From the NCBI GenBank assembly GCA_037200545.1, contig JBBCGE010000003.1, positions 355,948 to 419,947 on the forward strand: a stretch of 64,000 bases of DNA. Reading direction: 5' to 3'. Positions 25,725 through 53,801 of this stretch are shown here, piece after piece. Source of the DNA: Limisphaerales bacterium (GTDB taxonomy: Bacteria > Verrucomicrobiota > Verrucomicrobiia > Limisphaerales > UBA11358). Position 1 is the stretch's first letter. Each line of letters opens with the position of its first letter. The translations under genes and the position numbers were made by a program. The notes below the pieces were generated by a model. It ran no database searches. It saw only the letters and a list, made by a program, of their open reading frames with translations, and had not been told where the DNA came from.

Positions 25725-25783
25725 CATAGAGCTAGGTCATACAGTTCCCGCCAACCGCACCTTGCTGACATCGCACTTCTGAA

Positions 25784-27456: not shown

Positions 27457-27804
27457 TTAGTTTGCTGCCGAGTTTTTTATTTTTTTCAAAGTGCGGACAT
27501 AGGCCACCAGCGCCTTGATGTCATCGTCGGACAACTGTTCAAACGGTTTCATCAGGGTTTTTTCACCGGACTTGAGACCTTCCTTGATGGATTTAAAGGC
27601 GGCGTCATCCGTCAAGTCCGCCTGCACCTTGGCGTCGCTGAAATCTTTGCAGCCAATTTTTGCGCCAATCTTGGTGTCGCCCTTGCCCTCCGCGCCGTGG
27701 CACTTGGCGCAAAGCGTGGTCCAGTTTTCCTTGGCGTCGGCGCCCTTTACGGTGAATGCGGCGGCAAGGCCAAACATCGCCGCCAGCAGGATTATTTTTT
27801 TCAT
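27457..27804 (-). CDS. monohaem class I c-type cytochrome, secreted
   Basis: Signal peptide MKKIILLAAMFGLAAAFTVKGADA, a single CAKCH motif, and a distal Met (LMKPF). Confidence 0.8.
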   Translation of the reverse strand: MKKIILLAAMFGLAAAFTVKGADAKENWTTLCAKCHGAEGKGDTKIGAKIGCKDFSDAKVQADLTDDAAFKSIKEGLKSGEKTLMKPFEQLSDDDIKALVAYVRTLKKIKNSAAN

Positions 27805-28134
27805 CTTCGATATCTCCGGTTGATTTGGTTATGGCGCAGTCGCGCCTGTTTCACCTTCAAGTTTGCCAGTCACCGGAAAGACGACCAACCATCGGTTGCT
27901 TAATGCTGGGCATTTTTTGATGAGTGCAGATCGGTATTCCGGCGGGCGCTTCATCTTTCAAGTTTTGAGAATCATGGAATCAGCCGGAAATCCGGGCGGC
28001 AATTATTGTTTGACCTTACGCAAGGGATGGTGAGCACGCCGGCCGTTGAAAATCTAATCTCAAGACATGAAAACCAGCAACTGGTTGAGAGTTGTCAGCA
28101 TGGTGGCCAATGCAGGTGGCATCAATAAACAATC

Positions 28135-35472: not shown

Positions 35473-36377
35473 TTATTTTATCTCGTTGGTGGCGCTGGCT
35501 TTTATCTGCTCCAGCGCGTTGATCTGGGAGCGGAGTTTGGCGGCGATCTCCTTGAGCTTTTCCGACTGCGCGGACTGCACCTGCTGGAAATGTTTCATGG
35601 CCGCCTGCTGGTCGGTCCAGGAGCCGCTGGCCTGCGCATTGGCCAGACGTTGCCGGGCTTCCTCGACCTGCGTCTCCATCTCCACCGCCGCCGTCTGGTA
35701 ATCGCCCAACGCACCGACGCTGAGAAGCTGGCTGCCTTCAGCCACGGAAAGGGTCGCCAGATCGGGTAACGCTTTCTTGACCGCTTCGATGGTCACGGCA
35801 TCAGGCGCAGGTGCGGCGGGAAACGCCCGAGGAACTTTGCGCCGGGCCGGCTGATTTCAGCCGGGCGATGGCGCGGCTCAGATCCGCTTCCAACGCCGGT
35901 TCCCATTCGGCGGAAAGTTGGGGGAATGATTCCTTCCGTCCGTTGGAGATTAAAGTGATGCCAAAATAACAGGCGTCGCCCTTGTCGAGATTGAAGGCCG
36001 GAGTCCGTCGGCGGAAGCGGCATTGGCATCGGCCGCAGTCTTGAATTGTGTCACGGAAATCTTCCCTTCGCCGTCACGTTGATATTCCGCTAGCAATTGG
36101 TTGATGCGGTCGGCAAAAGCAAACGTATCGGCGGGCACGCTGTTTTGATCGAGCACGGAGTAGAATGAATTTCCACCGGGGAGCTGAGATTTTTTTAGAA
36201 TCGTCCGGTACCGCCGGATAATTCACGGTTGCCGTCGGTGCCTGGATTCTTCAACATGCCATGGCGGGCGTACCAAAAAAGTCCCGCCACCAGGCCGATG
36301 CACGTCAGGCACACGATTAAAATTTTAACTCCGGCACCGGCTTTTTCAGTGATCCGCGCAGGCGATGATTTGCTCAT
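35473..36377 (-). pseudogene. membrane-anchored hypothetical protein with a C-terminal coiled coil, several frameshifts
   Basis: N-terminal TM VKILIVCLTCIGLVAGLFWY (ORF 36195-36434). Middle fragment NSVPADTFAFADRINQLLAEYQRDGEGKISVTQFK (35950-36156). Intact-looking C-terminal ORF 35473-35796 is Ala/Gln-rich coiled coil. Joining them is my inference. Confidence 0.35.
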
Positions 36378-36667
36378 AGGAAAAACCGTGGATGGTTTGT
36401 TGGTCTGGATTTCCAGCGTCGCAGATCCCGGCATTACACGCGAGAAAAAAACCTGTTTTTAGTCCGCCGCCGGCCCGGAAAAGCAGGTGGTTCAAATTGA
36501 CGGATGACAAAAAAAGGCTGGCGTTAGGCAAGATAAGGAAAGCCTCCATATGCCGCTCCTGTAAGATTTCGTTCACGCCTAAAGGCACCAATGTTCAGAT
36601 GGCAAACCAATGGTTGGCCGTTGCAACTGCTGCACTCAGGAATGCCCGGTCGCCGTTGTTGTCCCAA

Positions 36668-38362
36668 ATGAAGAGAAAAACTCAACTGGTAAACAAAACG
36701 CTCGTCGTGTTCTGGACGTTGTTGAGCATCGTTCTCTGCGACTTTTCCACTCAAGGGCAGGGGGTTCAACACCTGTTGGAACCTCAGCCCGGCGGCTGGC
36801 CCGGTTTGCCGGTCATGAACGGCATCCTGAAAGTCACCAACGGCGTGAGTTTGATGTGGACGGGCCCCTCGGGATATTATCAACTGCAAAAAAAATCTTC
36901 GCTGACCGGCTCCTCATGGCAGAACGTCGGCGCTCGGACGTTGAACTGGCAGGCCACCGTGGCGGTGGTTCCGGGCAATGCTTTTTTCCGAGTGTCCGGG
37001 CCGTCGCCGCACTTCATTGGTTCGCAAGCCTGCACCGAATGTCACGGCAACATTCAATCCACGGTGTTGAGGACGGTCCATGCTACCGCGTTCACGGACG
37101 CTGATTTTGTTTCCGCCGGCGGTCAAAACAATCCTTCCTGTCTTTCCTGTCACACGGTGGCTACAAGCTGCCGACCGGATTTGTCAGCAAGTCCCTGACG
37201 CCGAAACTGGCAAACGTGCAGTGCGAAAACTGCCACGGTCCGGCCGCCTATCATGCCCGCCAATCCGGATGATTTCACGGTCGTGCCGCGGTATTGAGAT
37301 TGCCGCCACGCTTTGCGGCGGTTGTCACCCAAGGTCCCATGCAGCCCACTTTCGAAGAATGGAAATCGAGCGGACATTCTGCCATCCCGGCGGCCGTGCT
37401 GAATTCCATGGCTTTCCTCCCCCGCCAATTTAACCGGTTGCGGCCGGTGTCATTCGGGTTCGGTCCGGCTGGCGTTGCTTAACGGACAAAATCCCAGCAC
37501 GGTTGCCAATGATTACAATGTCCCCATCACCTGCGTCGTCTGCCATGATCCGCACCAGACCACGGCGTATCCGGCGCAAGTGCGCAATCCGCTGTCCTCA
37601 ACGAATTATTATTCGCTCACCACGTCCGCGAATTTTGCCACCGCGTACAACCCGAAAATTAACATCTGCGCCCAGTGCCATAACAGCCGCGGAGCCGCGT
37701 GGACGGACACCTCGCGGGGCGCCGCATCATTCGCAGCAGTATAATTTTCTGCTGGGTTCCATCGGCGAACTGCCGGAAGGCTCGGCCACGTTCAATCCCG
37801 GTTCGCACGCCGGGTTGCCGGCTTCCGCCCAGTATTCTCTTTCCGGCACGTTTTACCTGACCAATCAGTGTGTTTCCTGTCACATGCAAAAGGATGCCGC
37901 ACCGGCCAACACTCAGAGCCATGCATTTGCATTCGGCAACTACGCCGCCTGTCTGAACTGTCATCCTACCAACCCGGAAAAGCTGGTGTCGATGTCATGG
38001 TGCCGGCGGTTTCCAACCGGGTTTACAACTTGAAATTTTGCGCTGATTATGGGCCGTCAACAACGCGAACCCCGCGTTGCGTACGAAACGGAGCGGTTGC
38101 CTGGGAATATACGACACCGGGCGGTTTGATCTGGCAGACCAACCAGCTGGAGGAATCACCGGCTGGACGCAGGTGGAATCGGTAAATTTTGGCGGGCCGA
38201 ATACGGCGGCGCAGGTCTTGATTCCGAATGATATCAAACGGGCCCGCTTCAATTTATACTTGGTGCTCAACGACGGCGAGTTTCGGCACCCACAATCCAT
38301 TTTTTGCGCTGGACCTTTTGGACACGGCTGAAGAGTGGGTGCTTGATGAAATTGACAATTAA
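36668..38362 (+). pseudogene. secreted multihaem c-type cytochrome (about 9 CXXCH), paralogue of 29211-31652, many frameshifts as sequenced
   Basis: Signal-like MKRKTQLVNKTLVVFWTLLSIVLC. Motifs across frames: CTECH, CLSCH, CENCH, CGGCH, CGRCH, CVVCH, CAQCH, CVSCH, CLNCH. Blocks are co-linear with the intact paralogue, e.g. VQCENCHGPAAYHA vs VQCESCHGPGSEHA and ITCVVCHDPH vs ITCQTCHDPH. Confidence 0.7.
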
Positions 38363-38366
38363 CAAC

Positions 38367-39231
38367 ATGACAAGGTTTTCATTCATCTGGAATTTTCTGC
38401 CATCCAGCAAAAAAGGGCGCGCCCTGATGGCTGTGGCCGGCCTGAATCATGCTGGTGCTGGCAGCCATCTCCTGCAGCACGGTCAACAATCAGGCAGTCG
38501 CGTTACCGGACGTTTCCCGGAGCGAAATACATCGGCTCCTCGGAATGCGAGCAATGTCCATGATGAAATTTACAAAGACTTCAAGGACTGCGGATCACGC
38601 GCGGCTCATGACCGAAGGTCCCAACGCCAAAGACGTGGGCTGTGAATCCTGCCATGGGCCCGCCAGTCTTCATGCGGACTCTGGTGGCGAAGTCAAAACG
38701 CCCTATGCTTTCACTCCGGACGTCCGTTGCCCGCCGGCCTGGCCGGAACCACGCCCGGCATGTCGCCGGCCCGTTCAAAAGAAACCGTTTGCTACCAATG
38801 TCATGCCGATGTGCGCGGGCAATTTGAACTTCCCAATCATCATCCTGTCCCGGAAGGCCGGATGGATTGCACTATTTGTCATTCGCCGCACAAGGGAAGC
38901 ATCCACGCCGGTGGCGGCACGCCTTGATGTCGCAAAACGATAATTGCATCAAATGCCATCCGGCTCAACGCGGGGCCTTACGTGTTTTGAACACGAAGCG
39001 TTGCGCGAAGGTTGTACTTCCTGTCATACCGCCCACGGCAGTGTAAATGCAAAATTGCTCACCGTGCGGGATTCAAACTCTGCCTCAAGTGTCATTTTCA
39101 CAGATAAGAAACGGCGCCATCCTCATAGGTGGTTCGGATCACACCATCCGTTTGCAGCAGGCACTTGCTGGACGGCTGGCTGCCATGAAGCGGTTCACGG
39201 TTCGCGCGTCAACCCGTCGCTTAGATTTTAG
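38367..39231 (+). pseudogene. small periplasmic multihaem cytochrome (about 8 haem sites, MtrA/DmsE/OmaB-like), several frameshifts as sequenced
   Basis: Motifs across frames: CEQCH (restored by removing one C at 38558-38559), CESCH, CYQCH, CTICH, CIKCH, CTSCH, CLKCH, and the terminal GTCWTAGCHEAVHGS. Haem sites are packed closely, about one per 35 aa. Confidence 0.7.
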
Positions 39232-39247
39232 GTCGTCGAGGAAAACC

Positions 39248-41388
39248 ATGAAAAGGAAACATCCGACAAAAAGGCGAAAGGACCTGGCCTCGCGGCGGGC
39301 ATGGTATCGTCATTGCATACCTCGTCGTCGCGGCGTTTTTGTCCTGGAGCCACGCGGCGCACGCCGCCGGCACCAATGCTCCTGCACCGGTTCTGACGCC
39401 GGAGCAATGGTTCGAGGGTGGCACCAATACTTACAATAACTGGGTTGATCTTTCCGTGGGTGGCCTGATTTTGGATGGCAGCACCGCGCAAGGGCAACAG
39501 CAATATCAGTTGCAAAAAAAATCCCTTCGGTGGCGTCAGCGATCTGCACTTCCAGCAGGATGTCGCCAAGGAAAACCACGCTGACCCTGGACGGCCACGC
39601 GCTGTTCGATCAAAACGACTACAAGATGACGTTCCGTTTGCAACGCGAGGATTTCGGATACATCAAAGTCAACGTCACCGACTTTCGCACCTGGTATAAC
39701 GGTGCGGGCGGTTTTTTCCCGCCCACCGGGATTCAATACCAGCTTCCCAATGATGATTTGTATCTGGATCGCGGCGAATTTTCCATTGAGGCGGGACTCA
39801 CGCCCAAGGATCTGCCGCAAATGTTTTCAAATATGACCACAGCTACCGGGACGGGGCAAAAGAGTTCCACCATCTGGGGGCCGGTGCATCCTGATGCAAC
39901 ATCGGCAGTGCGGGGTGTATATCCATCCATTTATGACATCAACGAAAAGGTGGACAGCTACTCGTTGGATTTGACCCATAACATCAAGAGCACGGATTTG
40001 GGGTGTCGGCGTGCGTTACGAAACCGCCAGCCTGGCTGACAACCGGCAGGAGACATTCTGGCAGGGCGAACCGGGACAACGGAATGTTACGGACAATCAG
40101 GGGACTTCCTATGACATGTTTAACGCCCATGCCTTCACCGAGACCTGGTTTAAGAATGGCATTTTGTTTTCCACCGGCTACATGTTTGCCAATATAAATG
40201 AAACCTTCACCCGGCAGTCGCAATTACGGGGACGATTTCAATGTGGTGTACACCTCGAATCCGTTGAACGGTCTGGGCTATGCCAATCTCAATGGCGGTG
40301 CGCAGGAGCAGGAACACGTGGCGAACCTGAACTTGATGGCGACGCCCGTAAAATACCTGACCATCGTGCCGTCGCTGCGGGTGCAATCAGACACGTGGAA
40401 TGCGAATTCCGCCGGCATCGGGACGCAGGGCACTTTCACCAGCCCCTACACCAGCACCAGTGACGGGGAGACGTTGGATGTGCGGGAGTGTCTGGATATC
40501 CGTTATACCGGCGTAACCAATTGGGTTTATTATGCCAGTGCCGAACTGACCGAAGGCACGGCAATCTCAATCAGTATGGCGGGCTGTCCTCAAGTCAACG
40601 GGATCGGTGTGCCGCCCGTTCTGGAACTCACCGATCAAACCCGCTGGTTGCAGAAATATTCTCTCGCGCGCGCTGGTATCCTGTCCGCCGCACCACGATT
40701 GACTTTGGGGGCTATTACAAGAACAACCAATACAACTACAACAATCCTACTGACAGCACTTACAATGGCGAGGACAGCCCCAATCGTTATCCTGCCTATC
40801 TGGTCATGGAGAGTTTTCAAACCTACGATGGCAATGTGCGCCTGACTTTCCGGCCCGTCGCAACGTCACTCTGGTCAGCCGTTATGAATATCAGCATTCA
40901 ATCATCAACACGACTCCCGATGCGATTTCAGGGCTGGGCGATGCCCAGTCGTCCACCATGAACAGCAGATCATCGCCCAGAACGTGACGTGGACGCCCAT
41001 TTCCCGGCTCTGTTTCCAAGGCGGTTTCAATTATGTCTTAAGCACGACGCAGACGCCCACGTCCGCCTACACCCAGGCCATCCTCAATTCCCAGAACAAC
41101 TACTGGACCATCACCTTGAACTCGATGCTGGTGTTAGATGACAAGACCGATTTCAACGTGGATTTCTTTATTATCATGCGGGTGATTTCAACGACAATGC
41201 CGCTTACGGCGTGCCGCTCGGTGCCGGTGCGGAGGAATACACCGTGACTGCGGTCATCACCCGCGTATCACCCAAAATTTGCGGGTCAATCTCAAATACG
41301 CTTATACCCAATACAACGACTGGGCTTCGGCGGCAACAACAACTACGATGCCCAATTGGTTTATACCACGCTTCAATACCGGTTTTAG
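39248..41388 (+). pseudogene. putative outer-membrane beta-barrel protein (candidate porin partner of the adjacent cytochromes), many frameshifts as sequenced
   Basis: Signal-like segment IVIAYLVVAAFLSWSHAAHAAG. There are long stretches of alternating-polarity, Tyr/Asn/Thr/Gly-rich sequence. The reconstructed C-terminus ...NLKYAYTQYNDW...LVYTTLQYRF ends in an aromatic residue, as OMPs do. Confidence 0.5.
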
Positions 41389-41569
41389 ATGAATTCTCCC
41401 GAAGGCAGGGCGGCAGGTTGATTCAAAAAAAATTGGTCTGCGGGGGCCGTTTATCAACTACATTGGGTCCAGGTTATGACACCGTTCACACATCTCTCTC
41501 CAACCTGGAAAACAAACGCCACACGATTGCCCGGTTAAAAATTTCCAATGAAAAACGCTGAGTATAGAT

Positions 41570-42909
41570 TTGGATCTGGTAAAAAAATATAACGTGGCCG
41601 GGCCGCGTTACACCAGCTATCCGCCGGCGACCAAGTTCAGCGAAGCTGTGACATGGGAGCAGCTTTCTGAGAAGATCGAAGATAATAATCTCAGTCCTCG
41701 CGATCTTTCGGTTTATTTTCACATTCCATTCTGCGAGTCGCTCTGCTGGTTCTGCGGCTGCACCACGGTCATCACCACCAACCACGATAAAGGCAATGAT
41801 TACGTTGCCTATCTTGGCCGCGAGGTTGCCAAGCTCGCGCCGCGATTGAACAAAGATCGCAAAGCCGTCCAACTTCATTTTGGTGGCGGCTCGCCCACGT
41901 TTTTGCGCCCCGATGAAATCCGCCGACTCGGTGAAATCATCCACAAACACTTTACGTTTTCACCGGATATTGAAGCGAGTGTCGAGGTGGACCCGCGCCG
42001 GCTGACACGCGAACACCTGGTCGCCTTGCGGGAGATCGGCTTCAACCGCGCCTCGATGGGCGTGCAGGATTTTAATCCGCAAGTGCAGGAGGCGATCCAT
42101 CGCATCCAGCCGCGCGCGATGACGCAGCAGGCGATTGACTGGATGCGCGAACTCGGCTTTGGCTCCATCAACCTTGATTTGATCTACGGTCTACCTTCAA
42201 CGAAACCCTCGACACCGGTGCGAGATGAAGCCCGACCGGCTCGCCGTGTTCAGCTACGCGCATGTGCCCGTGGATCAAGCCCCGCGCAAAAAATCCTCGA
42301 GGAAAAATCCTGCCGACGCGGAAAGCAAACTCGAGGTGCTGAAGCTCGTCATCGAACGGCTCACGGCCGGATGACCAGTATGTTTACATCGGCATGGATC
42401 ATTTTGCGAAACCGACGGACGAACTCACCATCGCGCAGCGCGGGAAAAAAATTGCAGCGGAATTTCCCAGGGCTACAGCACGCGCGCCGGCTCGGATATT
42501 TATTCGTTCGGCATGAGTGCGATTTCACAGACCCCCCGACGCCTACTGGCAGAACGAAAAGGAGCTGCCGAAATACCAGACGGCGGTGGACGCGGAAAAA
42601 GTGCCACTGCACAAGGCGTATTTCATGACCGGCGAAGACAAGATCCGCCGCGAAACCATCATGCGCGCGATGTGCGACCTCTCACTCGACTTCGCGGCGA
42701 TGAGCGCAAAACTCGACATCAACTTTGAGGAACATTTTGAAACGGAACTTGCCGCGCTCGCGCCTTTCATCGCCGATGGACTGGTGAAAAAAACTCCTGC
42801 CGGACTCGAGATCACGAATTCCGGCCGCCTCTTCATCCGCAACATCGCCATGTGTTTTGACAACACGCTCGGCGCGGCTAATGAGCGCAGACACTCCAAG
42901 ACGATTTAA
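41570..42909 (+). pseudogene. hemN: oxygen-independent coproporphyrinogen III oxidase (radical SAM HemN), at least 3 frameshifts as sequenced
   Basis: N-terminus LVKKYNVAGPRYTSYPPATKF, radical SAM motif IPFCESLCWFCGC, GGGSPT. The C-terminal ORF 42517-42909 (YWQNEKELPKYQTAVD...GRLFIRNIAMCFD) is the HemN C-domain. The middle part is only recovered by switching frames. Confidence 0.85.
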
Positions 42910-43191
42910 TTTTTCGCGGATTCAAAGAAGCGAACCCATCAAACTTCATCGAAAAGCGGCGACCACTTCTGCGATGTAAAATGATGTTCCACCTCCCGGC
43001 GAATCTGGGGTGATAATAATCGAATTAACCTAATTGTCTCCTGTTTCGCTGATCCAAAGCGTGCATCCAGGATTTTCACAGACATCTGCAAACCGGCCAA
43101 GCTTCTTTCTTAATCCGTTGAATTTCGGAAAGGATTCGTTTTTGTTTTGCTTCATGTAAGGCAGAAATTTCCGACATGATTTTTGATTCTT

Positions 43192-43674
43192 CTACGAGAG
43201 CGTTATCCTGTTTCTCTTCTTCTCAAATAGCGGTTTTGGTTTAGCTCCTTTGCAAGCTTTCAAATGACCGGAAAGATGCTGCTTTTCAACTGAACAATTA
43301 CATTTGGGACAAGTCTCCATTGTTTTTGAACTTTGTGACGGACAACGGGATTTTTTGTGGTTCGATTGGTAGGACGAACACGTTGGAGCGTTCTAGGGCA
43401 GCGCTCCTTGTGTTCTTCACGCTCGTCTTCATAAAAAAGATCCGTTACAGCATGGACATTTGGTCTTCAGCTCCGTTTCTCTGCGAATACGATAAGTGGA
43501 TGCCCATTCCTCAAATTCAACATCAGCAGGAGTGAGGATTGTTATTTGGAAATCGCCCATTTTGACGTGTTTAATCAAGCCATCCTCACTCGAAAGAACC
43601 ACAAGTTCGCCAAGTAATTCGCTGAAATCTAGGTCGGGGGTGCCGCGAGCAAAAGCAATGTTCCATCGAGACAT
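43192..43674 (-). pseudogene. hypothetical protein with two C2HC-type zinc-finger-like motifs, frameshifted
   Basis: ORF 43429-43674 ends at ..KCPCCNGSF. Removing one base from the A6/T6 run (~43434-43439) continues it as YEDEREEHKERC. A second motif, CPKCNCSVEKQHLSGHLKAC, follows in another frame. The region is AT-rich. Confidence 0.3.
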
Positions 43675-43767
43675 CCGATTTGTAGTTTCGGCCTTGCGGC
43701 GAACCGAGGCACGATATTTTATTTACCAAAGCAAGATTTGGAGACACGAAGCTACTCTGGCTATTTG

Positions 43768-44072
43768 TCAGTGAGGCGATGCACGCGTAGGAATCACGAT
43801 GAGCAGCTCATCGAAGCAACCGTGTTTTGGCCACGGCCAACCAAGCGGCGGATTAAACCCACACAGAGCCGCCGTTTATGTCGGATAAAATAAACTTCCT
43901 TCCTACATTTAGGACAACATGTCGGATGACAAACATCTTTGAATCGTTCACTGAAAGAGTAGGTGCGTGAGCTAAATCCTGTCCCGCCATAATTTCCACC
44001 GCCCGATCCGATATGGCCGTCACCACCGAATCCGCATGTGCAACAGGGAGAATGATTATTTGCGTTACACAT
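43768..44072 (-). pseudogene. small Gly/Cys-rich zinc-ribbon protein, frameshifted
   Basis: MCNANNHSPCCTCGFGGDGHIGSGGGNYGG..., then CPKCRKEVYFIRH. After frame changes this continues as NGGSVWVNPPLGWPWPKHGCFD. Confidence 0.3.
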
Positions 44073-44219
44073 TGTAATTTCCGTGTTTCATCCGTGTTCA
44101 ATCTGTGACTAAATAATTTCGTTCGCAAATAAATTATTATTCACGAAATCCATCGCAATCATCATTTGCTGGCGATTGCCGCAATTGCCAAACGCCCGGA
44201 TTGGCGGTATAAACACAGC

Positions 44220-44437
44220 ATGAGCGCGCACGACCCTCATCACGATTGACCCGGACATTCTCGGCGGCACGCCGGTGTTCAAAGGGGACGCGCGTGCCCA
44301 TCAAGTCGCTGTTCGAGTATCTGGAGGACGACTATTCGTTGGAGGAATTTCTGGAATGTTTCCCGTCCGTGACACGCGCGCTGGCGTGCCGGGTGTTGGA
44401 ACAGTCAGAAGCGGCGCTCCTTGAGCCGTCCGCATGA
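44220..44437 (+). pseudogene. DUF433-family putative antitoxin, frameshifted
   Basis: ITIDPDILGGTPVFKG|TRVPIKSLFEYLEDDYSLEEFLECFPSVTRA is recovered by removing one G from the GGGG run at 44284-44287. Pairing with the DUF5615 gene downstream is the classic arrangement. Confidence 0.6.
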
Positions 44438-44758
44438 AAATCCTGCTGGACGAGTGTGTGCCATGGCCGATGCACCGGCTGCTCGCCGGCCATGAATTGT
44501 CGCACCGCTCAACAGTGTGGCTGGGGCGGGATCCAAAAAACGGTGATTTGCTGCGACTCGCGGAAAAGGAATTCACCCTGTTCATCACGTCCAGATCAAA
44601 ACTTACGCTACCAGCAAAATCTAGGCAGGTAGGCAAATTGCCATCCTTGAGCTTTCCACGAATAAATTGCGCCGTATCGTGGCGGCGACGGATGCTTTGA
44701 TGGCATCGGTGGAAGCGATCAAAAGCCCGGTGAGTTTCGGCATCTGGCAATTCCATGA
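44434..44758 (+). pseudogene. DUF5615-family (PIN-like) putative toxin, frameshifted
   Basis: MKILLDECVPWPMHRLLAGHE... and GDLLRLAEKEFTLFITS. The start overlaps the DUF433 stop (ATGA at 44434-44437). The reconstructed end overlaps the hemY start (ATGA at 44755-44758). Confidence 0.55.
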
Positions 44759-46164
44759 ATCCAAAATCCATCGCAATTATCGGCGCTGGTATCACGGGGT
44801 TGACCGCTGCGTTTTATCTCAAACGCAAGGGCGTGCCGGTCACGGTGTATGAAGCGGGCGGGCGTGTTGGTGGTGTCATCCAATCCATCCGCAAAGACGG
44901 TTTTCTCGCCGAGTTCGGGCCGAACACGATTCTTGAGACGTCGCCGAAGATCGCGCAACTCGTCGCGACGCAGACCTCGAATCGCACAAACTGAATCATG
45001 ATCCGAAAGCCACGGCGCGTTATGTGGTGCGCGATGGTCGTCCGATCGAGATGCCCGGTTCAGTGCCGGGATTCTTCACGACCAGGTTATTTTCACTAAA
45101 AGCCAAGTTCGCCATGGTGCGCGAGCCGTTCATCAAGCCGCGCCGCGATGGCGTGGAGGAAAGCATCGCGCAATTCGTCCGTGCGCCGCTTCAACCAGGA
45201 ATTTCTCGACCACGCGATTGATGCACTGGTGGCGGGCATCTACGCCGGCGATCCGTATAAGCTGTCGCTGCCGCACGCGTTCCCCAAGCTCAAGGCGCTG
45301 GAGGACAATTACGGTTCCATGATCAAAGGCCAGATTTTCGGCGCGCGCGACCGCAAGAAGTCCGGCGAAGTCGCCAAGGACCGCGCACCAAAATTTTCCT
45401 TTGACGAAGGATTGCAGGTGCTGCCGGATACGCTCGCGGTGCAGCTTGGTGATGCCGTAAAATTGAACACACCGGTCACGAAGCTCACGCAAACGCGTGA
45501 CGGCTGGCGCGTGACGACGGCCAATGGTGAATTTGAGCACAGTGCGGTGGTTTATTGCGGCACGGCACATCGCTTGGCGGAACTGGAATCGTTGATGGTA
45601 GGGGCTGCGCTGCCCCGCAGCCTTGAAATTGTAGCGGCGCAGCAACGCCGCTCTACCGGGGCGTTCTCCGGGAATCAATCATCCGCCCGTTTCGGCGGTG
45701 GTGCTGGGTTTTCGCCGTGAGGATGTGGCGCATCCGTGCAGCGGTTTCGGGATGCTGATCCCAAAAATCGCCGGCTTTAAAATTCTTGGCACAATTTTCT
45801 CATCTGCTTTATTTCCAAACCGCGCCCCCGGCCGGTCATGTCACTCTGACGAGCTATGTCGGCGGCGCGCGTTATCCTGAACTCGCCTCCATGCCGCCGG
45901 AAAAGCTGGTGGAGGTGGTGCTGGCGGATTTGAAGATTCTGCTCGGCGTGAGTGGCCGGCCGGTATTCATGCACACGGCTTTTGGGCCCAAGGCAATTCC
46001 ACAATATAACGTGGGCTATGGCAAATATCGTGATCTGCTGACCGATAATTGAAGCGAACAACCCACACCTGTTCTTCGCCGGCCATTATCGCGATGGAGT
46101 CTCGTTGGGCGATTCAATCGTTTCGGGCGTGAACATTGCCGAACGCGTTGGTAAGCTTTTTTAA
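44755..46164 (+). pseudogene. hemY: protoporphyrinogen oxidase (HemY-type, FAD-dependent), many frameshifts as sequenced
   Basis: FAD dinucleotide motif IAIIGAGITGLTAAFYL..G..VTVYEAGGRVGG. Co-linear fragments follow in changing frames (FLDHAIDALVAGIYAGDPYKLS, VVLGFRREDV, PAGHVTLTSYVGGAR, AIPQYNVGY, FFAGHYRDGVSLGDSI). Confidence 0.8.
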
Positions 46165-46165
46165 G

Positions 46166-47195
46166 ATGAGCAAAGCAATTCTCCTGGTCAATCTCGGGTC
46201 GCCGGACTCGCCGTCTGTGCCGGATGTGCGCCGTTATCTCAACGAGTTTTTAATGGATGGCCGGGTCATTGACGCACCATGGCTGGTGCGACGGTTTGTC
46301 GTCGGGATGATTTTGATCAACCGCCCCGAAAAGAGTCGGGCCATGCCTATGAAAAAGTCTGGGACCAAGGAAGGCTCCGCCACTTGGTCGTCACCAGCCG
46401 TCATGTGCAGGAGCTTTTGCAAAGGCGGGTTCGCGTGCCGGTGGAAACTGGCGATGCGTTATCAAAATCCGTCCATTAAATCCGCCGTAAAAAAACTGGC
46501 GGCGGGCGGCGCGACGGAGGTTTTGCTCATCCCGCTCTTTCCGCATTATGCGATGTCCAGCTACGAAACCGCCGTCGTGCGCGTGCAGGAAGTTGTCACC
46601 CAACTTGCGCCGCAGATGAAACTGGTCGTGCAGCCGCCTTATTACGACCAGCCGGACTATATCGCGGCGCTGGTGGCGAGCGCGCCGAATATTTTAAGGA
46701 GGACTACGATCATTTGCTGTTCAGCTTTCATGGCAATCCCGGAGCGGCACATCAAGAAATCGGACACGACGGGTTGTCATTGCCTGGCCACGCCCAATTG
46801 CTGCGAGACGCCCAGCCCGGCGCACGCGCAATGTTACCGGGCGCAGTGCTACCGGACGGCGGCGTATGTTCATTGAAAAGGCCGGCGTGCCGGCGGGGAA
46901 ATGGTCGGTGTCATTTCAATCACGGCTGGGAAAAGATCCGTGGCTGAAACCCTACACAGATTTCGAACTGCCGCGCTTAGCGACGGAAGGCAAAAAACGA
47001 ATGTTGGTGATTTGCCCGGCCTTTGTATCAGACTGTCTTGAGACGATGAAGAAATTGGGATGCGCGGCTGTGAAGAATTCATGTCCGGTAATGGCCAAGA
47101 GTTCACAACGGATTCCCTGTATGAACGAGCATCCGGCCTGGATTGGCGTCTTGGAAAAAAATGGCTGCACGATTCACGGAGCCCCACCCGGTTAG
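46166..47195 (+). pseudogene. hemH: ferrochelatase, several frameshifts as sequenced
   Basis: MSKAILLVNLGSPDSPSVPDVRRYLNEFLMD, LLIPLFPHYAMSSYET, HLLFSFHG(I)PERH, SFQSRLGKDPWLKPYT, LVICPAFVSDCLET. The 3' end is uncertain. One frame stops at 47193-47195, 3 nt before the att repeat. Confidence 0.8.
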
Positions 47196-47198
47196 AAA

Positions 47199-47217
47199 TG
47201 GAGCCAATGGCCGGGAT
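47199..47217. repeat. att direct repeat, distal copy (duplicate of the tRNA-Thr 3' end)
   Basis: Identical 19-mer to 53727-53745. It is the reverse complement of ATCCCGGCCATTGGCTCCA (T-arm 3' half, acceptor 3' strand, discriminator and CCA). Confidence 0.9.
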
Positions 47218-47315
47218 GGCTGTTATTCTAGCGATTGCGAAGACAATATGCCTGATTTTATTAGTGAATCAACCCTAATCATTGTAACCGATTCATACTC
47301 TTTTCAACTCGTTTA

Positions 47316-47339
47316 GTGTCCATTTTGGTGTCCGTTTTT
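47316..47339 (+). repeat. tandem 12-bp motif GTGTCC(A/G)TTTT(G/T) x2, candidate integrase arm-type binding sites (left end)
   Basis: GTGTCCATTTTG GTGTCCGTTTTT. The same motif occurs as a tandem pair at 53660-53683 near the other end, in the same orientation. Confidence 0.5.
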
Positions 47340-47423
47340 TTGCTGGCTAAATTATTATCATAAAAGACAAACACGTTTTCCGTTAGCAAATTTTAATGCC
47401 ATTTAGGAATTTAGGCCGAGTAT

Positions 47424-47505
47424 TACGCCGGTCGGGAGTGAGTAGCCTAACGTAAGGTTAAATTTATTCTAATGTCCCTTGTGGCTACTCACTCCGACCG
47501 GCGTA
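47424..47505. repeat. long near-perfect inverted repeat (23-bp stem, 35-nt loop) abutting the first CRISPR repeat
   Basis: TACGCCGGTCGGGAGTGAGTAGCC (47424-47447) pairs with GGCTACTCACTCCGACCGGCGTA (47483-47505) with a single 1-nt bulge. It ends 2 nt before the repeat at 47508. Confidence 0.8.
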
Positions 47506-47507
47506 GT

Positions 47508-47674
47508 GCTTTGCCTTGATTCCAAAAACGGGTAGAGCAAACTAACCAAACACCATTTACACAGGTGTAACCAGCTTTGCCTTGATTCCAAAAACGGGTA
47601 GAGCAAACTGGTTCCCAAAACCAATCTTCTTAAATGAAAGCTTTGCCTTGATTCCAAAACGGGTAGAGCAAACT
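47508..47674 (-). CRISPR. CRISPR array, 3 repeats (36 nt) and 2 spacers (30 nt)
   Basis: Repeats lie at 47508-47543, 47574-47609 and 47640-47674. The plus-strand sequence is GCTTTGCCTTGATTCCAAAAACGGGTAGAGCAAACT. The third repeat has A4 instead of A5. Spacers are 47544-47573 (AACCAAACACCATTTACACAGGTGTAACCA) and 47610-47639 (GGTTCCCAAAACCAATCTTCTTAAATGAAA). The minus orientation gives a GTTTGCTCTACCC... 5' end, typical of type II repeats. Confidence 0.85.
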
Positions 47675-47713
47675 CGGTGGGTGCAAGTGGCTGAATTTAC
47701 AGCCCTTGCACCG

Positions 47714-48027
47714 TTACCAGAGTTGGATCTGTTCGGGTAAGTCCTCCGCTTCCGTTTCGGAGCGGGGGAACCCTGAATAACATAAGACCGTTCCCATTGT
47801 GAACGTGTCACAAAAAATAGCCCGGATACTGCCTTCCGGAGGAGATGTTTCTTAACCCGGTCAATGTGGGTTTCCTGCCGGGCAAACGTAACGCACGCAC
47901 GCGCATAGACGCTGAATTGCACCATTTGATAGCCGTCATCTAGCAGGAAATTGCGAAAGTCTGTTGCGGCCTTGCGCTGCTTCTTGGCTATGACCGGCAA
48001 ATCAAATGTTACGACGAGCCAGCCCAT
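47714..48027 (-). pseudogene. cas2: CRISPR-associated endoribonuclease Cas2, about 3 frameshifts as sequenced
   Basis: MGWLVVTFDLPVIAKKQRKAATDFRNFLLDDGYQMVQFSVYARAC.. Frame switches then give HLPPEGSIRAIF / VTRSQWERSYVIQG / ETEAEDLPEQIQLW and a stop at 47714-47716. The listed ORF 47557-48153 reads through into the array only because of these shifts. Confidence 0.75.
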
Positions 48028-48935
48028 TTTATATTTTTCGGTGTCCACGGTTTGTAATGGCGCGGCTGGTTTTCCACCACGGCGCGGCGAAAGCCCGCGC
48101 ACCACGCCTTCAATTACGCCCTGAATTTCTAGCGTCAAATCCAGATAGTCCACCCGCTCTAATGGAAAGCCTGTTTACCCATTTGCGAAACTCCTTGCTG
48201 ACTTCCCATTGGCTTTTGTCGGGATGTTCCTTCACCCATTGAATCACGCGCCAATCCACGCATGGACGAAACTGTTCCATCAAATCATAAGCCAGCGGGG
48301 TGCTGCGTTCGCGGGCGACGTGGCCAATGCCATAGGTAGGATCAAGGCCAACACCAAAAAGTTTTTGCAGAATGGTAGAGAGCAATACCGCGTACCGTAA
48401 TTAAGAAAATTATTCAAACCGCCTTTGGCACGGTCGCGGGTGAAATTCTCATCATTCAAACTGCGGCCAAAAATCTGCCAGAAATTTTTCGCACAGAGGG
48501 CTTCCTTATGCGGCTTTTTGCCAAGCGCGGTTGCCCGCAAACTTTGCAAGGCTGCATTCTTCGGCGCGATGTATTCAGCAAGTGAAAGCTGGTTCTGACA
48601 TTTTGCATCAATCGTTTTTTGCCATAAAATGCAGCCGTGCGCGTGGCGTGAGATTAAGCATGGCGCGGGAAAGAATCGTGTCCTGTGGAACGATTGGCCG
48701 GGATCACAAGGCTGACGGGTTTGAACGCTTCACAAATGATTAGCGCGACGCCATGCTTGGCGGCTTCAAGAAACAAATTGCTGTGAATGGACGCTGAAAA
48801 ACTGGTGATGATAATGGACGCCACATCCTCCAGCGGAAGCTTGCGCTCGCCTTCGGAAGTCTTGCACGTCAACTGCCCATCCCGACAACTTAAAGAGCAA
48901 TTCGCGCTATCTATGCTAACTATGTGATATGACAT
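48028..48935 (-). pseudogene. cas1: CRISPR-associated endonuclease Cas1 (type II), at least 3 frameshifts as sequenced
   Basis: N-terminus MSYHIVSIDSANCSLSCRDGQL..LPLEDVASIIITS..HGVALIICE. Later fragments in other frames: ILWQKTIDAKCQNQ, AKNFWQIFG, GGLNNFLNYG, GLDPTYGIGHV..STPLAYDLMEQFRPCVD. The exact 3' end relative to cas2 is unresolved. Confidence 0.8.
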
Positions 48936-48984: not shown

Positions 48985-51900
48985 TTATTCGGAAGGCTTG
49001 ATTTCAAAGGTCGGGATGCCTGCAAGCTGGCTTTTAAGTATTTTCAACCCGCCATTGTAGAGAGCTTGTAGGCGAACGCTCTGGTAACAGTCATTCCTGC
49101 CAGCAACACGGTATTCGATTACATCCGGCGCACTAAAATCTACTGTCAGTCCATCGCGTTGCTTAAATTGCACTCCTCGAATCATCCACAATCCTCGATA
49201 GTCGCTTCGCCCGGCTTTGTTAAGCACTCGAATTAACATTCCGTTTCGTAACAAGCGCGGTTGCTTGCCTGCGTTACGCGCCTTTAATTCTTTGATACGA
49301 CGCCAGACTTTGTGCCAAGGGATGACAACAAACCTTTCCTCGCCTTCGGCTGCGTGGTCTAGGATTGCAACTCCAAAGTTATCGGTTATGACGCGCACGC
49401 CTTTTTGGGGTGAGAGTTTTCCGGGTTCAAGCCCAATGACTTTAGAAACATTTTCTTCAGTGTCTTTTATAGAGAGTTTTCCTGTCTTCGGATCGCGCGA
49501 CTGTTGGTGTAAGGAAATTCGGCCATCTTTAATTCCAGTTATGCCGCGCGTATTTTCTTCAACGTGCATTCCGCTCATGTCCGCTGGAATATGTTGCACA
49601 ACGCGTTTTTCGGCGAGGCGATGGCGGATTTGTTCCTTCAATGCGTCGGGCAGTTCGGTCAAACCAAAGCGGTTTTGGGTGTCAAAGTCGAAATATCCCG
49701 TCGAGCGTAAAAGAGCTTTCTCGGCATCGTTTGGGTTGCGCTTTAACATCAATTCCCACAAGCCGCCGTTATTTGGTAAATAATGAGAGGCTAATCCAAG
49801 CACACACGCATCAAGCGCGTGATGCAAATGTGTCAGATTGCGAATTTCGGTTTTTATTTTTGATGCTGCCGTCCGCATCTTTCACTTGTGGCGCGGCGGT
49901 TGCCAGACAGCCGAGCAAATTCCAACCTTTCCGCACCGTGCCGGTGACGGAACCGGGCAGGGAAACGACCGTTGGCGGTTTGTTATTTCCAGCGAAGGTT
50001 TTTTTGATGATTTGTGCGCCTAAACGGACAAGTTGTGACGTAACGGTGAGATCGCTCGGCACAAAACCTTTTTCTTCGTAGGATTGAAGTAGTAACAACT
50101 CTTTCCGTTTTTTCTTCCGCCGCTTGTCATCATCGTGGCCTTTGAAAGTTTCAAGGCTATCTGCCCATTGCTTGAAACGCGTGAGTGAGACGATGGAAAG
50201 CTGCGGTGATCCTTCTACGACTTTGCCTTGTTCATCACTGACAAATTGCATCGCCGTGCGCTGGCCTTTCATCCGATTCACTTCGGCAAAGGTGACAACC
50301 AGAGAATCTAACGAATCCGAAGGCCGGAGTGAACGCGGGATGACGTGATCTTTGTCCACCTGTCGCGAAACCAGATCAATCGCGTCATAAGTTTGCCCGG
50401 TGTAAGGACACGTCCAGCCGAGGTCTTCTGCGATACGCGCCTTACGGATAAGTCCGGCAGTGATTTGAATGGGTTTGCCGTTGAAAGTTCTTCCGTCCAA
50501 GTTTTCTTCCAGTTTGGCGGCAACGCCGTGATGATTTGATAATCGCCGACCTAAATCTTGTTGGATTTCCTTTGCTGATTTGCCGGACATTTCGCGCAAG
50601 TCGCGATTCACTTCAATAGTCGCAGTGGCGATGCGTGATTTATCGCCGTTGGCATAAGCAGGTTCGGCAATCAAATCTTTGACCAGCCGTTCAAGAATCA
50701 AAAGGCGATGGCGGACAAGGTGATTATTGGTTTGCTGGTCAATCCGCTTTTCTAATTGCGCCTGCCGCATTTCTTCCGTGATACACAAGCTATTGCCGTC
50801 TTCCTTGGGATGTTTTCCGGCCATCACCTCGGCATAGGCGCGGACGAGCAGGGGACGGGCATAAGCGGCACGGCCATCTGACTTTTTAATTGTTAGCGGA
50901 TTTTTTAATAAATCGTCGCGATTGAAAGAACCGGCCTTTTTAGAACGCTTCGTGTTCGCTGCCTCGGCAAGCTTGTTTAACTCCGCCTCAAACTCCGCCA
51001 AAGATTCCCCGCGCTTTTGCACGATTTCACAAATGCGCTCCAACGTGACCGGCTTGCCACGCTGCCAGAGATCGCGCGCCCGCTTTTGCACTGGATAAGA
51101 AAAAGTCGGCCAGAGTGTTTTTAATTTATCACCCCTGACAAGTTTTTGAATGGGATCAAGCAGCAACGCATCTTTGGCGTCTGGGTGCATAAGCATCATT
51201 TCCAGATTATTTCGCTCGCATCCCGGCAGTTCACGGACGGCTTTTTTTAATTCCGTTGGCGTCAGCGCGCCTTCGCTTTCCATGAGCGCATTTATTTTCT
51301 TCCGTTCGTCAGCGGTCAATTGACGTAATTCTTTTTCCTTTGCCCCTGCTACGCGAATGTTTGCCAGCGTCATTGCCCAGCGAAACTTTAGAAACTCTGG
51401 ACAATTCTTTGACGGAACCTTTTCGCCGGTAATCGGGCAGATGGAAATGATGCGGTTATCAAAACGGGGAACAAGCTGGCCGAACAGCAAGCCGCCTTGA
51501 TAACGGGCGGGCAATTTCAAATCAGGAACGCCCGCTGTCTGCCAATCCTCAAAAAGACTTTTAAGAAACCCGTCGGTAATGGCAGGTAATTTCCTCCGAT
51601 GATATTCCAACAAGTGACGCACTTCATTTTCTACGATGGATCGCGGAAATGCGGCATTAAGTCGTTTGAAATTTTCCTTTGAGGACTGCTTATCGCCTAG
51701 CGGTTCAAGACCGAGTGCCTTGCACAAAGTTTCCGCCATCGTATTCGCGCTATATTTTTCCATTAACGTGTGCGCCTGCTTTTCTTTTTCTGTGTCATCA
51801 GCCTGCGCTTCGGCTTCCTGCGCGCTCCAGCGGCGGTTGCCATCGTAACCGCGATTGTGGGCATACCAGCGCAACACGTCCCAAAGTTCCGTCCAGCCAA

Positions 51901-52124
51901 GCAAATGCTTCGCATCGCCATTGCTGGCAAGAACGCGCGCGGCCAAAAACCACGGCGCGGCATGACCACCGGCTTGCTGGTGTTTTTGCTTTAATTGCTC
52001 GACAGACAAAACTTTCAGGTGTGCCAGGAGTTTTTCTATCTGCTCGATGCGGTGGCGGGTAGAGCGGGCAGGGCAGGGGCAAGCGCGGTGAACCGACAGA
52101 TAGAATGCTTTTGCGTTTTAACAT
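48985..52124 (-). CDS. cas9: Cas9 (type II-C, compact, ~1,045 codons as sequenced); one internal frameshift and an anomalous N-terminus
   Basis: Arg-rich bridge-helix-like ARSTRHRIEQIEKLL. RuvC-II ATIEVNRDL. HNH CPYTGQ..DKDHVIPRS...VNRMKGQRT. RuvC-III THLHHALDACVLG. ORFs 49811-52009 and 48985-49878 join at the T5 run 49867-49871 (..DGSIKIKTEIRNLTH..). No canonical RuvC-I DxGxxSxGW motif was found upstream in any frame. The start at 52124 (MLKRKSILSV) is tentative. Confidence 0.85.
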
Positions 52125-52247
52125 CTGTAAAAGTCAACCTACGGGTTTGCGTAGCTACGAAGTCCCGTAGCTTACACAAAATTGCGAAACGTGAAATAAT
52201 CATGCAACGTGAACATTGAACGAAAAGAATTTTTGAGCGTATTTCAA

Positions 52248-52535
52248 ATGCCGCCCGCCCGTGTGGTTGCGGAAGAAGCGGCATGGTATCTGGGTTTTAT
52301 GCCGCATGATATTCCTGTGCTGGTCAGTGCGGGGCTGCTTAAACCGCTAGGGCATCCGCCTGCCAGCGGCACGAAGTTTTTTGCCACGGCCACGCTTCAA
52401 AAACTGCGTGACGATCTCAAATGGCTGTCCCGCGCTTCCGATGCCATCGTAAGGCATTGGCAAACAAAGAACGCCCGCAAGAAGCCTAATGTGTTTAAGC
52501 CACACTTGTTGCCTGTTCTGGCTGAACAATGCTAA
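52248..52535 (+). CDS. small DNA-binding / excisionase-like protein of the integrative element (putative)
   Basis: About 95 aa: MPPARVVAEEAAWYLGFMPHDIPVLVSAGLLKPLGHP...LRDDLKWL. The size, the position next to the integrase and the HTH-like segment suggest an Xis/AlpA-type function. The assignment rests mainly on context. Confidence 0.4.
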   Translation: MPPARVVAEEAAWYLGFMPHDIPVLVSAGLLKPLGHPPASGTKFFATATLQKLRDDLKWLSRASDAIVRHWQTKNARKKPNVFKPHLLPVLAEQC

Positions 52536-53562
52536 TCACGTTCCCCGCCTTTGCCCGTTTTTCGTATTCTTCCAAGGACGGTAACAGAACTTGCGCTTTT
52601 CGCGCATACGCCCGATGCACTGCTTTTGAGCCATGTCCCAAGTTTTCCATCGCAAACCTTTCTGGATAGCCTGCGACTTTAGCCCGTTCTGCCCACGCGT
52701 AACGGTAGCAGTGCAACGAAACGCCGGAAACACCCGCTAAACGACAACGGCGAGAAAATGCGCTTGCGCGGTCTGATTCCTTTCTGCGCGCAACTTGCGG
52801 GAAAATAAAACCGGTTGCTGGACGTTCACGAAGAATTCTGGCGATTTCATCACCAAAGCGAATCATAGCTTGGCTGTCCGTCTTCATGCGGGCAAAGGAG
52901 ATAGTTTTATCTTTCCAGTCAATATTTTCCGCGCGTAACGAGGCAACATCACTTTGTGAACCGCCCAAGTGCCAAAGCATTTCATAATAATTATTCAATT
53001 CAGGATTATATTCGCGCGCTAAAATCCTTTGATGTTCGTCCAAGGTAATCCCGCGTTTCTCTCTGAACTTTATTTTCGGCCATTGTCGTTTTGGAATGAT
53101 GGACTTTAGGAGCCAATCCATATCCAGACAAAAATTGTGGATGCGGCGCAGATAAATGTTGGTTGAAACCGTTCCGTTTCGCAGCACTTTCAAAAGAGTT
53201 TCGCCCTGCGTTTCAATTATGATTTGATCCCGAATGAGATCAAAAGCCTTGTCTTTGGCCGCCGTCAGCCAGCGCGTTTTGTTTTCTTCCTGTTTTGAAG
53301 CAATCATCGCATCAAAAGCGTTTTGCCAAGTGCGAGTGCTAACGCCTGAATCCGTCCCGGCCAGATAAGCTTTGGCAATTTGCAAGTTCAACACTGGCTG
53401 GCGTTCGGATTGGTTTTTTGCGTCAATAATCTGGTGGGCTTCATCTTCATTGTGTTTGCCAAGGCTGGTGCGTTTGCCTGTTTTAGTATCCACGCAATAG
53501 AATGCTCCGCCGCGAATGCCGCGACGAATTAAACGGAAACGTTTCTTCATGTGATCTTTCAC
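52495..53562 (-). CDS. tyrosine-type site-specific integrase
   Basis: 355 aa and intact. C-terminal catalytic region has HCYRYAW (HxxR) and LGHGSKAVHRAYAR (His...Tyr nucleophile). It lies immediately beside the tRNA-Thr attachment site. Confidence 0.85.
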   Translation of the reverse strand: MKDHMKKRFRLIRRGIRGGAFYCVDTKTGKRTSLGKHNEDEAHQIIDAKNQSERQPVLNLQIAKAYLAGTDSGVSTRTWQNAFDAMIASKQEENKTRWLTAAKDKAFDLIRDQIIIETQGETLLKVLRNGTVSTNIYLRRIHNFCLDMDWLLKSIIPKRQWPKIKFREKRGITLDEHQRILAREYNPELNNYYEMLWHLGGSQSDVASLRAENIDWKDKTISFARMKTDSQAMIRFGDEIARILRERPATGFIFPQVARRKESDRASAFSRRCRLAGVSGVSLHCYRYAWAERAKVAGYPERFAMENLGHGSKAVHRAYARKAQVLLPSLEEYEKRAKAGNVISIVQPEQATSVA

Positions 53563-53659
53563 GCAATCACGAAGATAAAAGAAGCCAGTCCCGAAGTGTT
53601 AAGGGGTAACGGATGGTTTATCGTCCGTTACGCCTAATTCCTACCAGACACCGAAATTG

Positions 53660-53683
53660 GTGTCCGTTTTGGTGTCCGTTGCG
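53660..53683 (+). repeat. tandem 12-bp motif GTGTCCGTTTTG GTGTCCGTTGCG, candidate integrase arm-type sites (right end)
   Basis: Same motif and orientation as 47316-47339. The nearby inverted pair GTAACGGA / TCCGTTAC (53615-53640) contains the same CCGTT core. Confidence 0.5.
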
Positions 53684-53726: not shown

Positions 53727-53745
53727 TGGAGCCAATGGCCGGGAT
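53727..53745. repeat. att direct repeat, tRNA-proximal copy
   Basis: Identical to 47199-47217 and forms the 3' end of tRNA-Thr. Confidence 0.9.
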
Positions 53746-53801
53746 TGAACCGGCGACCGACGGTTTACGAAACCGTTGCTCTACCACTGAGCTACATTGG
53801 C
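53727..53801 (-). tRNA. tRNA-Thr: tRNA-Thr (anticodon CGU), CCA encoded
   Basis: Minus strand: GCCAATG TA GCTC AGTGGTA GAGC A ACGGT TTCGTAA ACCGT CGGTC GCCGG TTCAATC CCGGC CATTGGC T CCA. This gives a clean cloverleaf (7-bp acceptor, 4-bp D, 5-bp anticodon, 5-bp T stems). Anticodon loop is TT-CGT-AA. Confidence 0.9.

Follow-up and report, generated by a model that had tools for sequence, protein, structure and literature searches.

The 64-kb window analysed here (the whole 64,000-nucleotide stretch of contig JBBCGE010000003.1, from a Limisphaerales bacterium of the Verrucomicrobiota, found in a deadwood metagenome) contains, next to a tRNA-Thr(CGT) gene, a 6.5-kb integrative island that consists of a tyrosine recombinase (integrase), a small divergent open reading frame (ORF) and, as its sole cargo, a CRISPR-Cas cassette. 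In this cassette cas9, cas1 and cas2 adjoin a short CRISPR array, neither csn2 nor cas4 being present, which is the gene set of type II-C (Table 1), and the plus strand of the array appears to be the sense strand of the CRISPR RNA (crRNA), antisense to the cas genes. As judged from the alignments with its orthologues, cas9 is truncated at the 5' end and begins at what is codon 70 of intact copies; what is left of it lies in two minus-strand frames (ORFs 49811-52009 and 48985-49878), from which a continuous 1,027-residue Cas9 is obtained by deleting one A from AAAAATAAAAAC.

The Cas9 identity of this product is plain, and so is the place where it starts. It scores 183 bits against TIGR01865 (cas_Csn1; cut-off 100) over model positions 54-852 only, whereas the intact orthologue P0002 aligns to the same model from position 3; Pfam recovers HNH_4, RuvC_III (after frame repair) and the Cas9 alpha-helical lobe, and the best PDB match (E 6e-12) covers the N-terminus only, the identity to solved Cas9 structures being very low. 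The RuvC-II Glu, the HNH His and Asn and, after the 1-bp repair, the RuvC-III His and Asp are all there, and of the bridge helix only ARSTRHRIEQIEKLL is left, KRRDYRRQRRH being gone. A protein search with the window Cas9 returned more than 1,400 relatives, the closest 27 of which (72-86% identical, 1,076-1,117 aa) were used as the orthologue set: 27/27 carry LELAFDVGHSS[IL]GWAV...RRDYRRQRRHARSTR, i.e., a canonical RuvC-I Asp motif, and in their N-termini (...LELAFDVGHSS[IL]GWAVLQ...GCGVVTFGADDCLASKRRDYRRQRRHARSTRQRIAQMEKLLAHLKVLS) this motif stands ~55 residues ahead of the bridge helix. The window protein enters the alignment of these orthologues exactly at ARSTRHR, that is, at codon 70, and blastn to the intact loci L002/L003 finds homology from 52069, unbroken through cas9, cas1 and cas2 into the first repeat. 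Translation of 51850-52400 reveals no DxGxxSxGW motif in any of the three frames, and six orthologous N-termini compared by tblastn with the entire window found nothing (best E 0.14). The first-pass annotation of this DNA, which had reported a Cas9 with HNH, RuvC-II and RuvC-III motifs and no recognisable RuvC-I, had given a spacing of ~45-55 residues between the Asp and the bridge helix elsewhere, and had proposed aligning the protein to orthologues and to Cas9 hidden Markov models, is thereby borne out in its core observation, the RuvC-I strand and its Asp being absent from the window and present in all the orthologues. By its own condition, orthologues with a normal motif and spacing would have exposed the anomaly as a sequencing or assembly error; the orthologues do have the normal motif, but the anomaly looks like a real deletion next to the core of a mobile element.

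Table 1. Features of the island, its CRISPR-Cas cassette and the truncated cas9 (window coordinates unless a locus is named).
Feature	Coordinates	Strand	Remarks
Distal att (attachment) repeat, TGGAGCCAATGGCCGGGAT	47199..47217		19/19 identical to the tRNA 3' end
Conserved distal island end	47218..47342		Homologous end in L004/L088, L005, L089 and L116
Large hairpin, ~23-bp stem	47424..47505		Outer end of the array; analogous hairpin at the same place in L002
CRISPR array, three 36-nt repeats and two 30-nt spacers	47508..47674	plus	cas2-proximal repeat 1 nt short
cas2, three 1-bp indels	47717..48048	minus	Alignment with three orthologous DNAs
cas1, five 1-bp indels	48018..48935	minus	Once corrected, full-length and with no stop codons
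5'-truncated type II-C cas9	48985..52069	minus	Equals orthologue codons 70 to end (orthologues ~1,096 aa); 1,027 codons once one base is removed
RuvC-III motif THLHHALDA	49807..49833	minus	In frame with the remainder only after a 1-bp correction
cas9 frameshift site	49851..49855	minus	A5 versus A4 in L084, L085 and L168 (+1 insertion)
HNH nuclease core VDKDHVIPRS...VNRMKG (DKDH...N)	50264..50359	minus	Pfam HNH_4, E=9e-15
RuvC-II motif TIEVNRDL, with catalytic Glu	50597..50620	minus	Same in orthologues
Bridge helix remnant, Arg-rich C-terminal part, ARSTRHRIEQIEKLLAHL	52016..52069	minus	Preceding KRRDYRRQRRH and all of RuvC-I absent
Deletion junction, 15 nt, GCTTGCCCCTGCCCT	52070..52084	minus	Origin not assignable; separates island-derived sequence from cas9 codon 70; holds the C4 run 52076-52079
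Island-derived intergenic region upstream of the small ORF	52085..52208		Homologous to L093, L092 and L091; plus-strand promoter-like site; out-of-frame ATG 52124
Small ORF, 108 aa, divergent from the integrase	52209..52535	plus	Kept beside the integrase in >60 related islands; no family match
Tyrosine recombinase (integrase), 355 aa, intact	52495..53562	minus	Pfam Phage_integrase; PHROG 1 integrase; 165 related loci
tRNA-Thr(CGT), integration target	53727..53801	minus	3' 19 nt (53727-53745) are one copy of the att repeat
Putative trans-activating CRISPR RNA (tracrRNA) block, ~135 nt	L002:9835-9965; L084:7850-7965; L085:401-515; L166, L167, L168 ~2850-2965	opposite to cas9	Conserved block

Nor is the remnant likely to be expressed as it stands. 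A TAA at 52118-52120 precedes the open part of its frame, in which a TTG at 52009, 20 codons downstream, is the earliest canonical start, and upstream of ARSTRHR there is no in-frame ATG, GTG or TTG at all, so that cas9, with an in-frame TAA upstream and a frameshift at 49851-49855, is not an uninterrupted ORF with a start codon. The “possible starts” that had been placed 10-20 codons upstream of the bridge helix are thus not to be found in this frame; an ATG is present at 52124, but a single base puts it out of frame with the remnant, and its own frame is open to the junction. No site resembling a promoter was found on the strand of cas9, and at 52154-52139, upstream of the remnant, there is a terminator-like hairpin. 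A 108-aa minus-strand ORF (52124-51798) begins at the same out-of-frame ATG, and the deletion of one C from the C4 run at 52076-52079 would join a 19-aa leader (MLKRKSILSVGSPRLPCP...) to Cas9 residue 70.

Upstream of codon 70, the window continues with 15 nt that belong to neither side and include the GCCCCTGCCCT string (the GCCC(C)T GCCCT GCCCG repeat noticed at first pass is real and reads GCCCCT GCCCT GCCCG at ~52064-52080, minus strand), and then with the island itself, whose tRNA-Thr, integrase and small ORF have homologues in L004/L088, L005 and L093, the homology reaching down to ~52129-52085. The 33 bp at 52097-52129 were considered as a possible remnant of the cas9 start and rejected, island-type sequence (CGGTTC-ACCGC) resuming beyond them, and a 20/28 similarity between the junction and the boundary of the array repeat and leader was taken as chance, there being 51 similar families in 10 kb. 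An exact search of public metagenome contigs with the junction 27-mer gave 0 matches. The remaining protein differs at 4/397 sites invariant in the 27 orthologues, while intact orthologues put to the same test show 1-7 deviations, except the three most divergent ones (P0025-P0027, 11-32); as the deviations are within the range of intact orthologues, the deletion would seem to be recent, or else a minority allele.

The same deletion seems to have cost the locus a second component. In each of six intact loci compared (L002, L084, L085, L166, L167 and L168, the genomic contexts of which are unrelated), a conserved block on the strand opposite to cas9 starts ~35 bp upstream of the ATG of that gene. 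Read away from cas9, it starts with an invariant 15-nt anti-repeat, GGAAUCAAG(A/G)CAAAG, and this anti-repeat (GGAATCAAG[A/G]CAAAG) can pair with the first part of the CRISPR repeat, GCTTTGCCTTGATTCC, its complementarity to the repeat start GCUUUGCCUUGAUUCC holding for an array read antisense to the cas genes; a long stem follows, four pairs of which show compensatory changes, and the block ends in a GC-rich hairpin and a T-run terminator, the sequence of which is specific to each locus. As this is the anatomy expected of a tracrRNA, the block is assigned, putatively, as one, on the strength of its conservation, the compensatory pairs and the terminators, the single-sequence fold of a candidate not being significant alone (z = -0.7). 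Type II-C loci are documented in which the anti-repeat lies upstream of cas9, as are type II-C arrays whose transcription runs against that of the cas operon (PMC3737331). In the window, the three repeats of the array are the only places where the anti-repeat motif occurs, and the conserved block, found upstream of cas9 in all six intact loci, is absent.

Some further observations were made on the repeats and arrays of this clade. One half of the repeat is invariant (TTTGGAATCAAGGCAAAGC in cas9 orientation) and pairs with the anti-repeat, and the other half is locus-specific (L166:7530-8300, L167:7580-9290, L084:12605-12765 and L168:7598-7701 were compared), as is the variable part of each candidate tracrRNA. 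The cas genes are intact in L002, but one half-degenerate repeat, with no spacer, is all there is of its “array” (L002:14720-14880); the hairpins at the array ends of L002 and of the window (47424-47543), which might be terminators or leader elements, have stems of ~23-25 bp and sequences unrelated to each other. Just past the tracrRNA terminator of L002, ~8 tandem copies of a 21-bp unit, GTCACGGGGCTTCAAAGAAAA, are found (L002:9462-9704), inside a called 204-aa ORF with no family match. Protospacers for the two spacers of the window, which fall in an error-prone stretch, were sought in viral contigs with 0 matches.

The internal split of cas9 is another matter. It is indeed caused by one frameshift, as had been claimed, although not at the T-run 49867-49871: comparison with five orthologous DNAs puts it at the T5 run 49851-49855 (plus strand), close to which another T5 run, 49857-49861, is found, and it is probably a PacBio high-fidelity (HiFi) homopolymer error. 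Relative to three orthologous DNAs, cas1 and cas2 have eight indels, each of 1 bp (five insertions and three deletions), which makes nine frame-breaking 1-bp indels in 4.4 kb when that of cas9 is included (six insertions, three deletions); the corrected Cas1 deviates at 2/169 sites invariant in six orthologues. Such damage is by no means restricted to the cassette: hemH (46136-47195), which adjoins the island, shows ~8 frame switches in one tblastn alignment, hemN-like and hemY-like genes are split as well, and maximal ORF length collapses at 36-49 kb and 23-28 kb, being normal elsewhere, cas9 and the integrase included (in the stretches dense in 1-bp indels, 36000-48900 and 23000-28000, it is 250-800 nt). 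The poor stretch ends within cas1 at ~48.7 kb, which leaves 3.4 kb between it and the deletion junction, itself in clean sequence. The source data are a hifiasm-meta co-assembly of HiFi reads with a mean length of 18 kb (PMC11613949), and the indel-dense stretches probably reflect single low-quality reads in an unpolished contig; when the rest of the window was compared with the fetched loci for synteny, as a gauge of the error rate, only hemH in L020 matched. Since all the indels are of 1 bp, no stops remain after correction and the neighbouring haem genes are equally broken, the eight cas1/cas2 indels and the cas9 frameshift are most likely uncorrected HiFi read errors and not decay. An indel cannot, however, explain the missing N-terminus, because the sequence itself is absent; of the assembly or indel artefact that the first-pass annotation had offered as one of three readings, what stands is its application to the internal frameshift and the broken cas1 and cas2, for which it is the likeliest explanation.

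As for the island, it has a tyrosine recombinase at the 3' end of a tRNA gene, a distal direct repeat, and conserved ends that enclose variable cargo in its relatives. The distal att repeat falls just past the CRISPR array, adjoining hemH, and 47191-47217 is identical (27/27) to the native tRNA-Thr 3' end and flank of L006. An arm-like tandem TTGGTGTCCGTT motif occurs just inside both ends (47313-47336 and 53657-53680), and the relatives that share the tRNA-proximal part also have a homologue of the distal end, 47196-47342, a stretch of 130-150 bp. The module of integrase and small ORF was met in 165 fetched loci (Verrucomicrobiota metagenome-assembled genomes and metagenomes), and the small ORF may encode an excisionase or regulator; searches of genome and metagenome contigs with the integrase gave no relative above 79% identity, and Cas9 or Cas2 was found in none of the other 164 related island loci. 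The sister island L004:9762-19922 (the same element as L088 and L087) has tRNA-Thr(CGT), the same integrase, the small ORF and the distal end; it is 10 kb long and carries a BglII-like restriction enzyme, an N6/N4 DNA methylase, a 1,208-aa SIR2 protein and an ankyrin protein; the family looks like a carrier of defence genes. The island of L005 measures ~2.6 kb, with only ~0.95 kb between the two ends. Related integrases sit beside tRNA-Ser(CGA), near hemH, in L020:8400-11020, and beside tRNA-Thr(CGT), with tRNA-Ser(CGA) nearby, in L006:6268-8403, from which it follows that the integrase family has more than one tRNA target. Several records are labelled Bifidobacterium or Nitrospira, and their content looks verrucomicrobial.

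Taken together, these data make it likely that cas9 recently lost its first 69 codons, its promoter and the tracrRNA gene in one deletion, and that what is left is a dead remnant on a small mobile island. An intact type II-C cassette (cas9-cas1-cas2 and the three-repeat array) would have been carried by the tRNA-Thr(CGT) island of a Verrucomicrobiota host, and one recent deletion or illegitimate recombination would then have fused cas9 codon 70 to what lies upstream of the small partner ORF. Lost in that event, on this view, were the putative tracrRNA gene, divergent in transcription from cas9, the promoter and start codon of cas9, all of RuvC-I including the catalytic Asp, and, of the bridge helix, the first half. 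A functional Cas9 is unlikely, because the remnant has no in-frame start, the window no anti-repeat outside the array, and the RuvC (RNase H) fold is three core strands short; the remnant is thus most likely a non-functional, fresh pseudogene and not a nickase variant. Of the earlier proposal of an N-terminal deletion, the deletion holds, homology starting at codon 70, and of the two outcomes it had left side by side the “dead gene” fits better than the “HNH-only nickase”. Several points do weigh against this explanation, namely that the junction is known from one contig only, that CRISPR as island cargo is a single case among 165 loci, that a tracrRNA could be encoded elsewhere in the genome, beyond the 64-kb window, that a 1-bp insertion error in the C4 run 52076-52079 would yield an ATG-initiated RuvC-I-less ORF, and that the absence of a relaxed-constraint signal fits continued function just as well as a very recent deletion.

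Were the junction an artefact of library or assembly (a HiFi read that is chimeric, say, or sequences wrongly joined by hifiasm-meta where coverage was low), the true genome would have an intact cas9 and tracrRNA gene. It is true that the assembly is an unpolished metagenome co-assembly with stretches of single-read quality in this very contig, that the junction recurs in no independent contig and that the remnant shows zero decay. The junction, however, lies in a clean part, with one cas9 indel per 3.1 kb and an intact integrase and small ORF; the two ends of the island can both be seen, agreeing with each other and with those of the relatives, and as the cassette is enclosed by two island-to-cargo junctions, of which a simple chimera makes only one, such a join is argued against; reads of 18 kb on average would, moreover, cover the entire 6.5-kb island. 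The artefact is therefore regarded as distinctly unlikely. Another suspicion, that the entire cassette is an old, decaying pseudogene cluster in which the frameshift of cas9 and the eight indels of cas1 and cas2 would be true mutations, is simply unlikely: nine frame-breaking indels in 4.4 kb and an array down to three repeats would suit it, and a split cas9 has precedents among decayed type II-C loci (PMC5174739), but all the indels are of 1 bp with insertions outnumbering deletions, correction leaves neither stops nor an excess of substitutions in Cas1 (2/169) or Cas9 (4/397), and the adjoining housekeeping haem genes are broken likewise, the indel-dense stretch of ~13 kb being on the scale of a single HiFi read.

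Two further explanations concern the protein itself. That RuvC-I is there, yet too divergent or in another frame to be recognised, is hardly conceivable: the loosely similar peptide LTFTDVKTQKHSICRF in another frame comes from a stretch that aligns to a non-coding region of related islands without cas9 (the degenerate RuvC-I, LTFTDVKTQKHSICRFTAL, put forward in the first-pass annotation proved to be homologous to the region upstream of the small ORF in L093 and is not cas9 sequence), the HMM match starts at position 54, tblastn finds nothing, and the “unusually divergent” reading has to be given up because close relatives, up to 86% identical, are perfectly canonical at normal spacing and the window holds no counterpart in any frame. 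Also very unlikely is a truncated protein that is produced and active, either as an HNH-only nickase or as an RNA-guided DNA binder and perhaps in the service of the island, even though the HNH, RuvC-II and RuvC-III catalytic motifs are intact, changes at invariant sites are not in excess, a single-base correction in the C4 run brings ATG 52124 into frame, and a short array recalls the nuclease-deficient CRISPR systems co-opted by transposons. As assembled, it has no in-frame start and no promoter-like site on its strand, with a terminator-like hairpin just upstream; the conserved tracrRNA gene is gone, with no other anti-repeat in the window; misfolding would be expected, judging by published Cas9 structures, from the loss of the first RNase H strands and half of the bridge helix; and this form is unseen in other members of the island family or of the Cas9 clade, leaving no sign of selection. 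The version in which the island expresses and has co-opted the RuvC-I-less Cas9 as a nickase or DNA binder, needs both ATG 52124 in frame and a tracrRNA from elsewhere in the genome, and is extremely unlikely.

The preferred explanation, a recent 5' deletion, also sets the remnant apart from the systems that it resembles. Like the engineered Cas9 D10A nickase, it has its RuvC active site disabled and HNH kept; D10A, however, is a point mutation that keeps the fold, whereas the remnant has lost RuvC-I entirely and gives no indication of being made into protein. CRISPR-associated transposons, which carry nuclease-deficient CRISPR effectors, offer a loose parallel to a co-opted remnant. With the type II-C systems of Neisseria meningitidis and Campylobacter jejuni, the cassette shares a cas9-cas1-cas2-only gene set, 36-nt repeats, 30-nt spacers and an array antisense to the cas operon, as well as, in the intact orthologues only, the upstream anti-repeat (PMC3737331); the copy in the window differs in having no codons 1-69, start, promoter or tracrRNA. 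Natural loss of function is not new to type II: Chylinski et al. (2013) described six defective loci with weak or in-ORF anti-repeats (PMC3737331), and a split type II-C cas9 is known from ‘Ca. Endomicrobium trichonymphae’ (PMC5174739); a missing or weak tracrRNA and a broken cas9 are common to them and to the present case, which differs in being a single 5' deletion abutting a mobile-element core, with the remaining cassette pristine-looking. Finally, tRNA-integrated genomic islands with CRISPR-Cas, e.g., in Vibrio, hold a complete cas operon and array between a tRNA-side integrase and a distal att repeat (PMC6360697), and the layout here is the same, with the differences that the island is 6.5 kb, has no other cargo, carries a type II-C system in a Verrucomicrobiota host, and is the sole one of 165 loci with cas genes.

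The missing RuvC-I is hence a deletion and not a new architecture, and this sequence is not one to be mined as a natural nickase or compact Cas9. It also carries a warning of a more technical kind, as unpolished HiFi metagenome contigs may hold 10-kb stretches of single-read quality that mimic pseudogenisation. Within its clade, that of a Verrucomicrobiota type II-C Cas9, the cassette is nothing unusual, its truncation being a further case of natural CRISPR-Cas inactivation, one that would amount to a snapshot of the death of a Cas9 system, in which the tracrRNA, the promoter and the first nuclease motif were lost at once, before any other decay. Type II-C cassettes have a different genomic context in each orthologue examined, and the island, whose relatives carry other defence genes, suggests itself as a possible vehicle for them.

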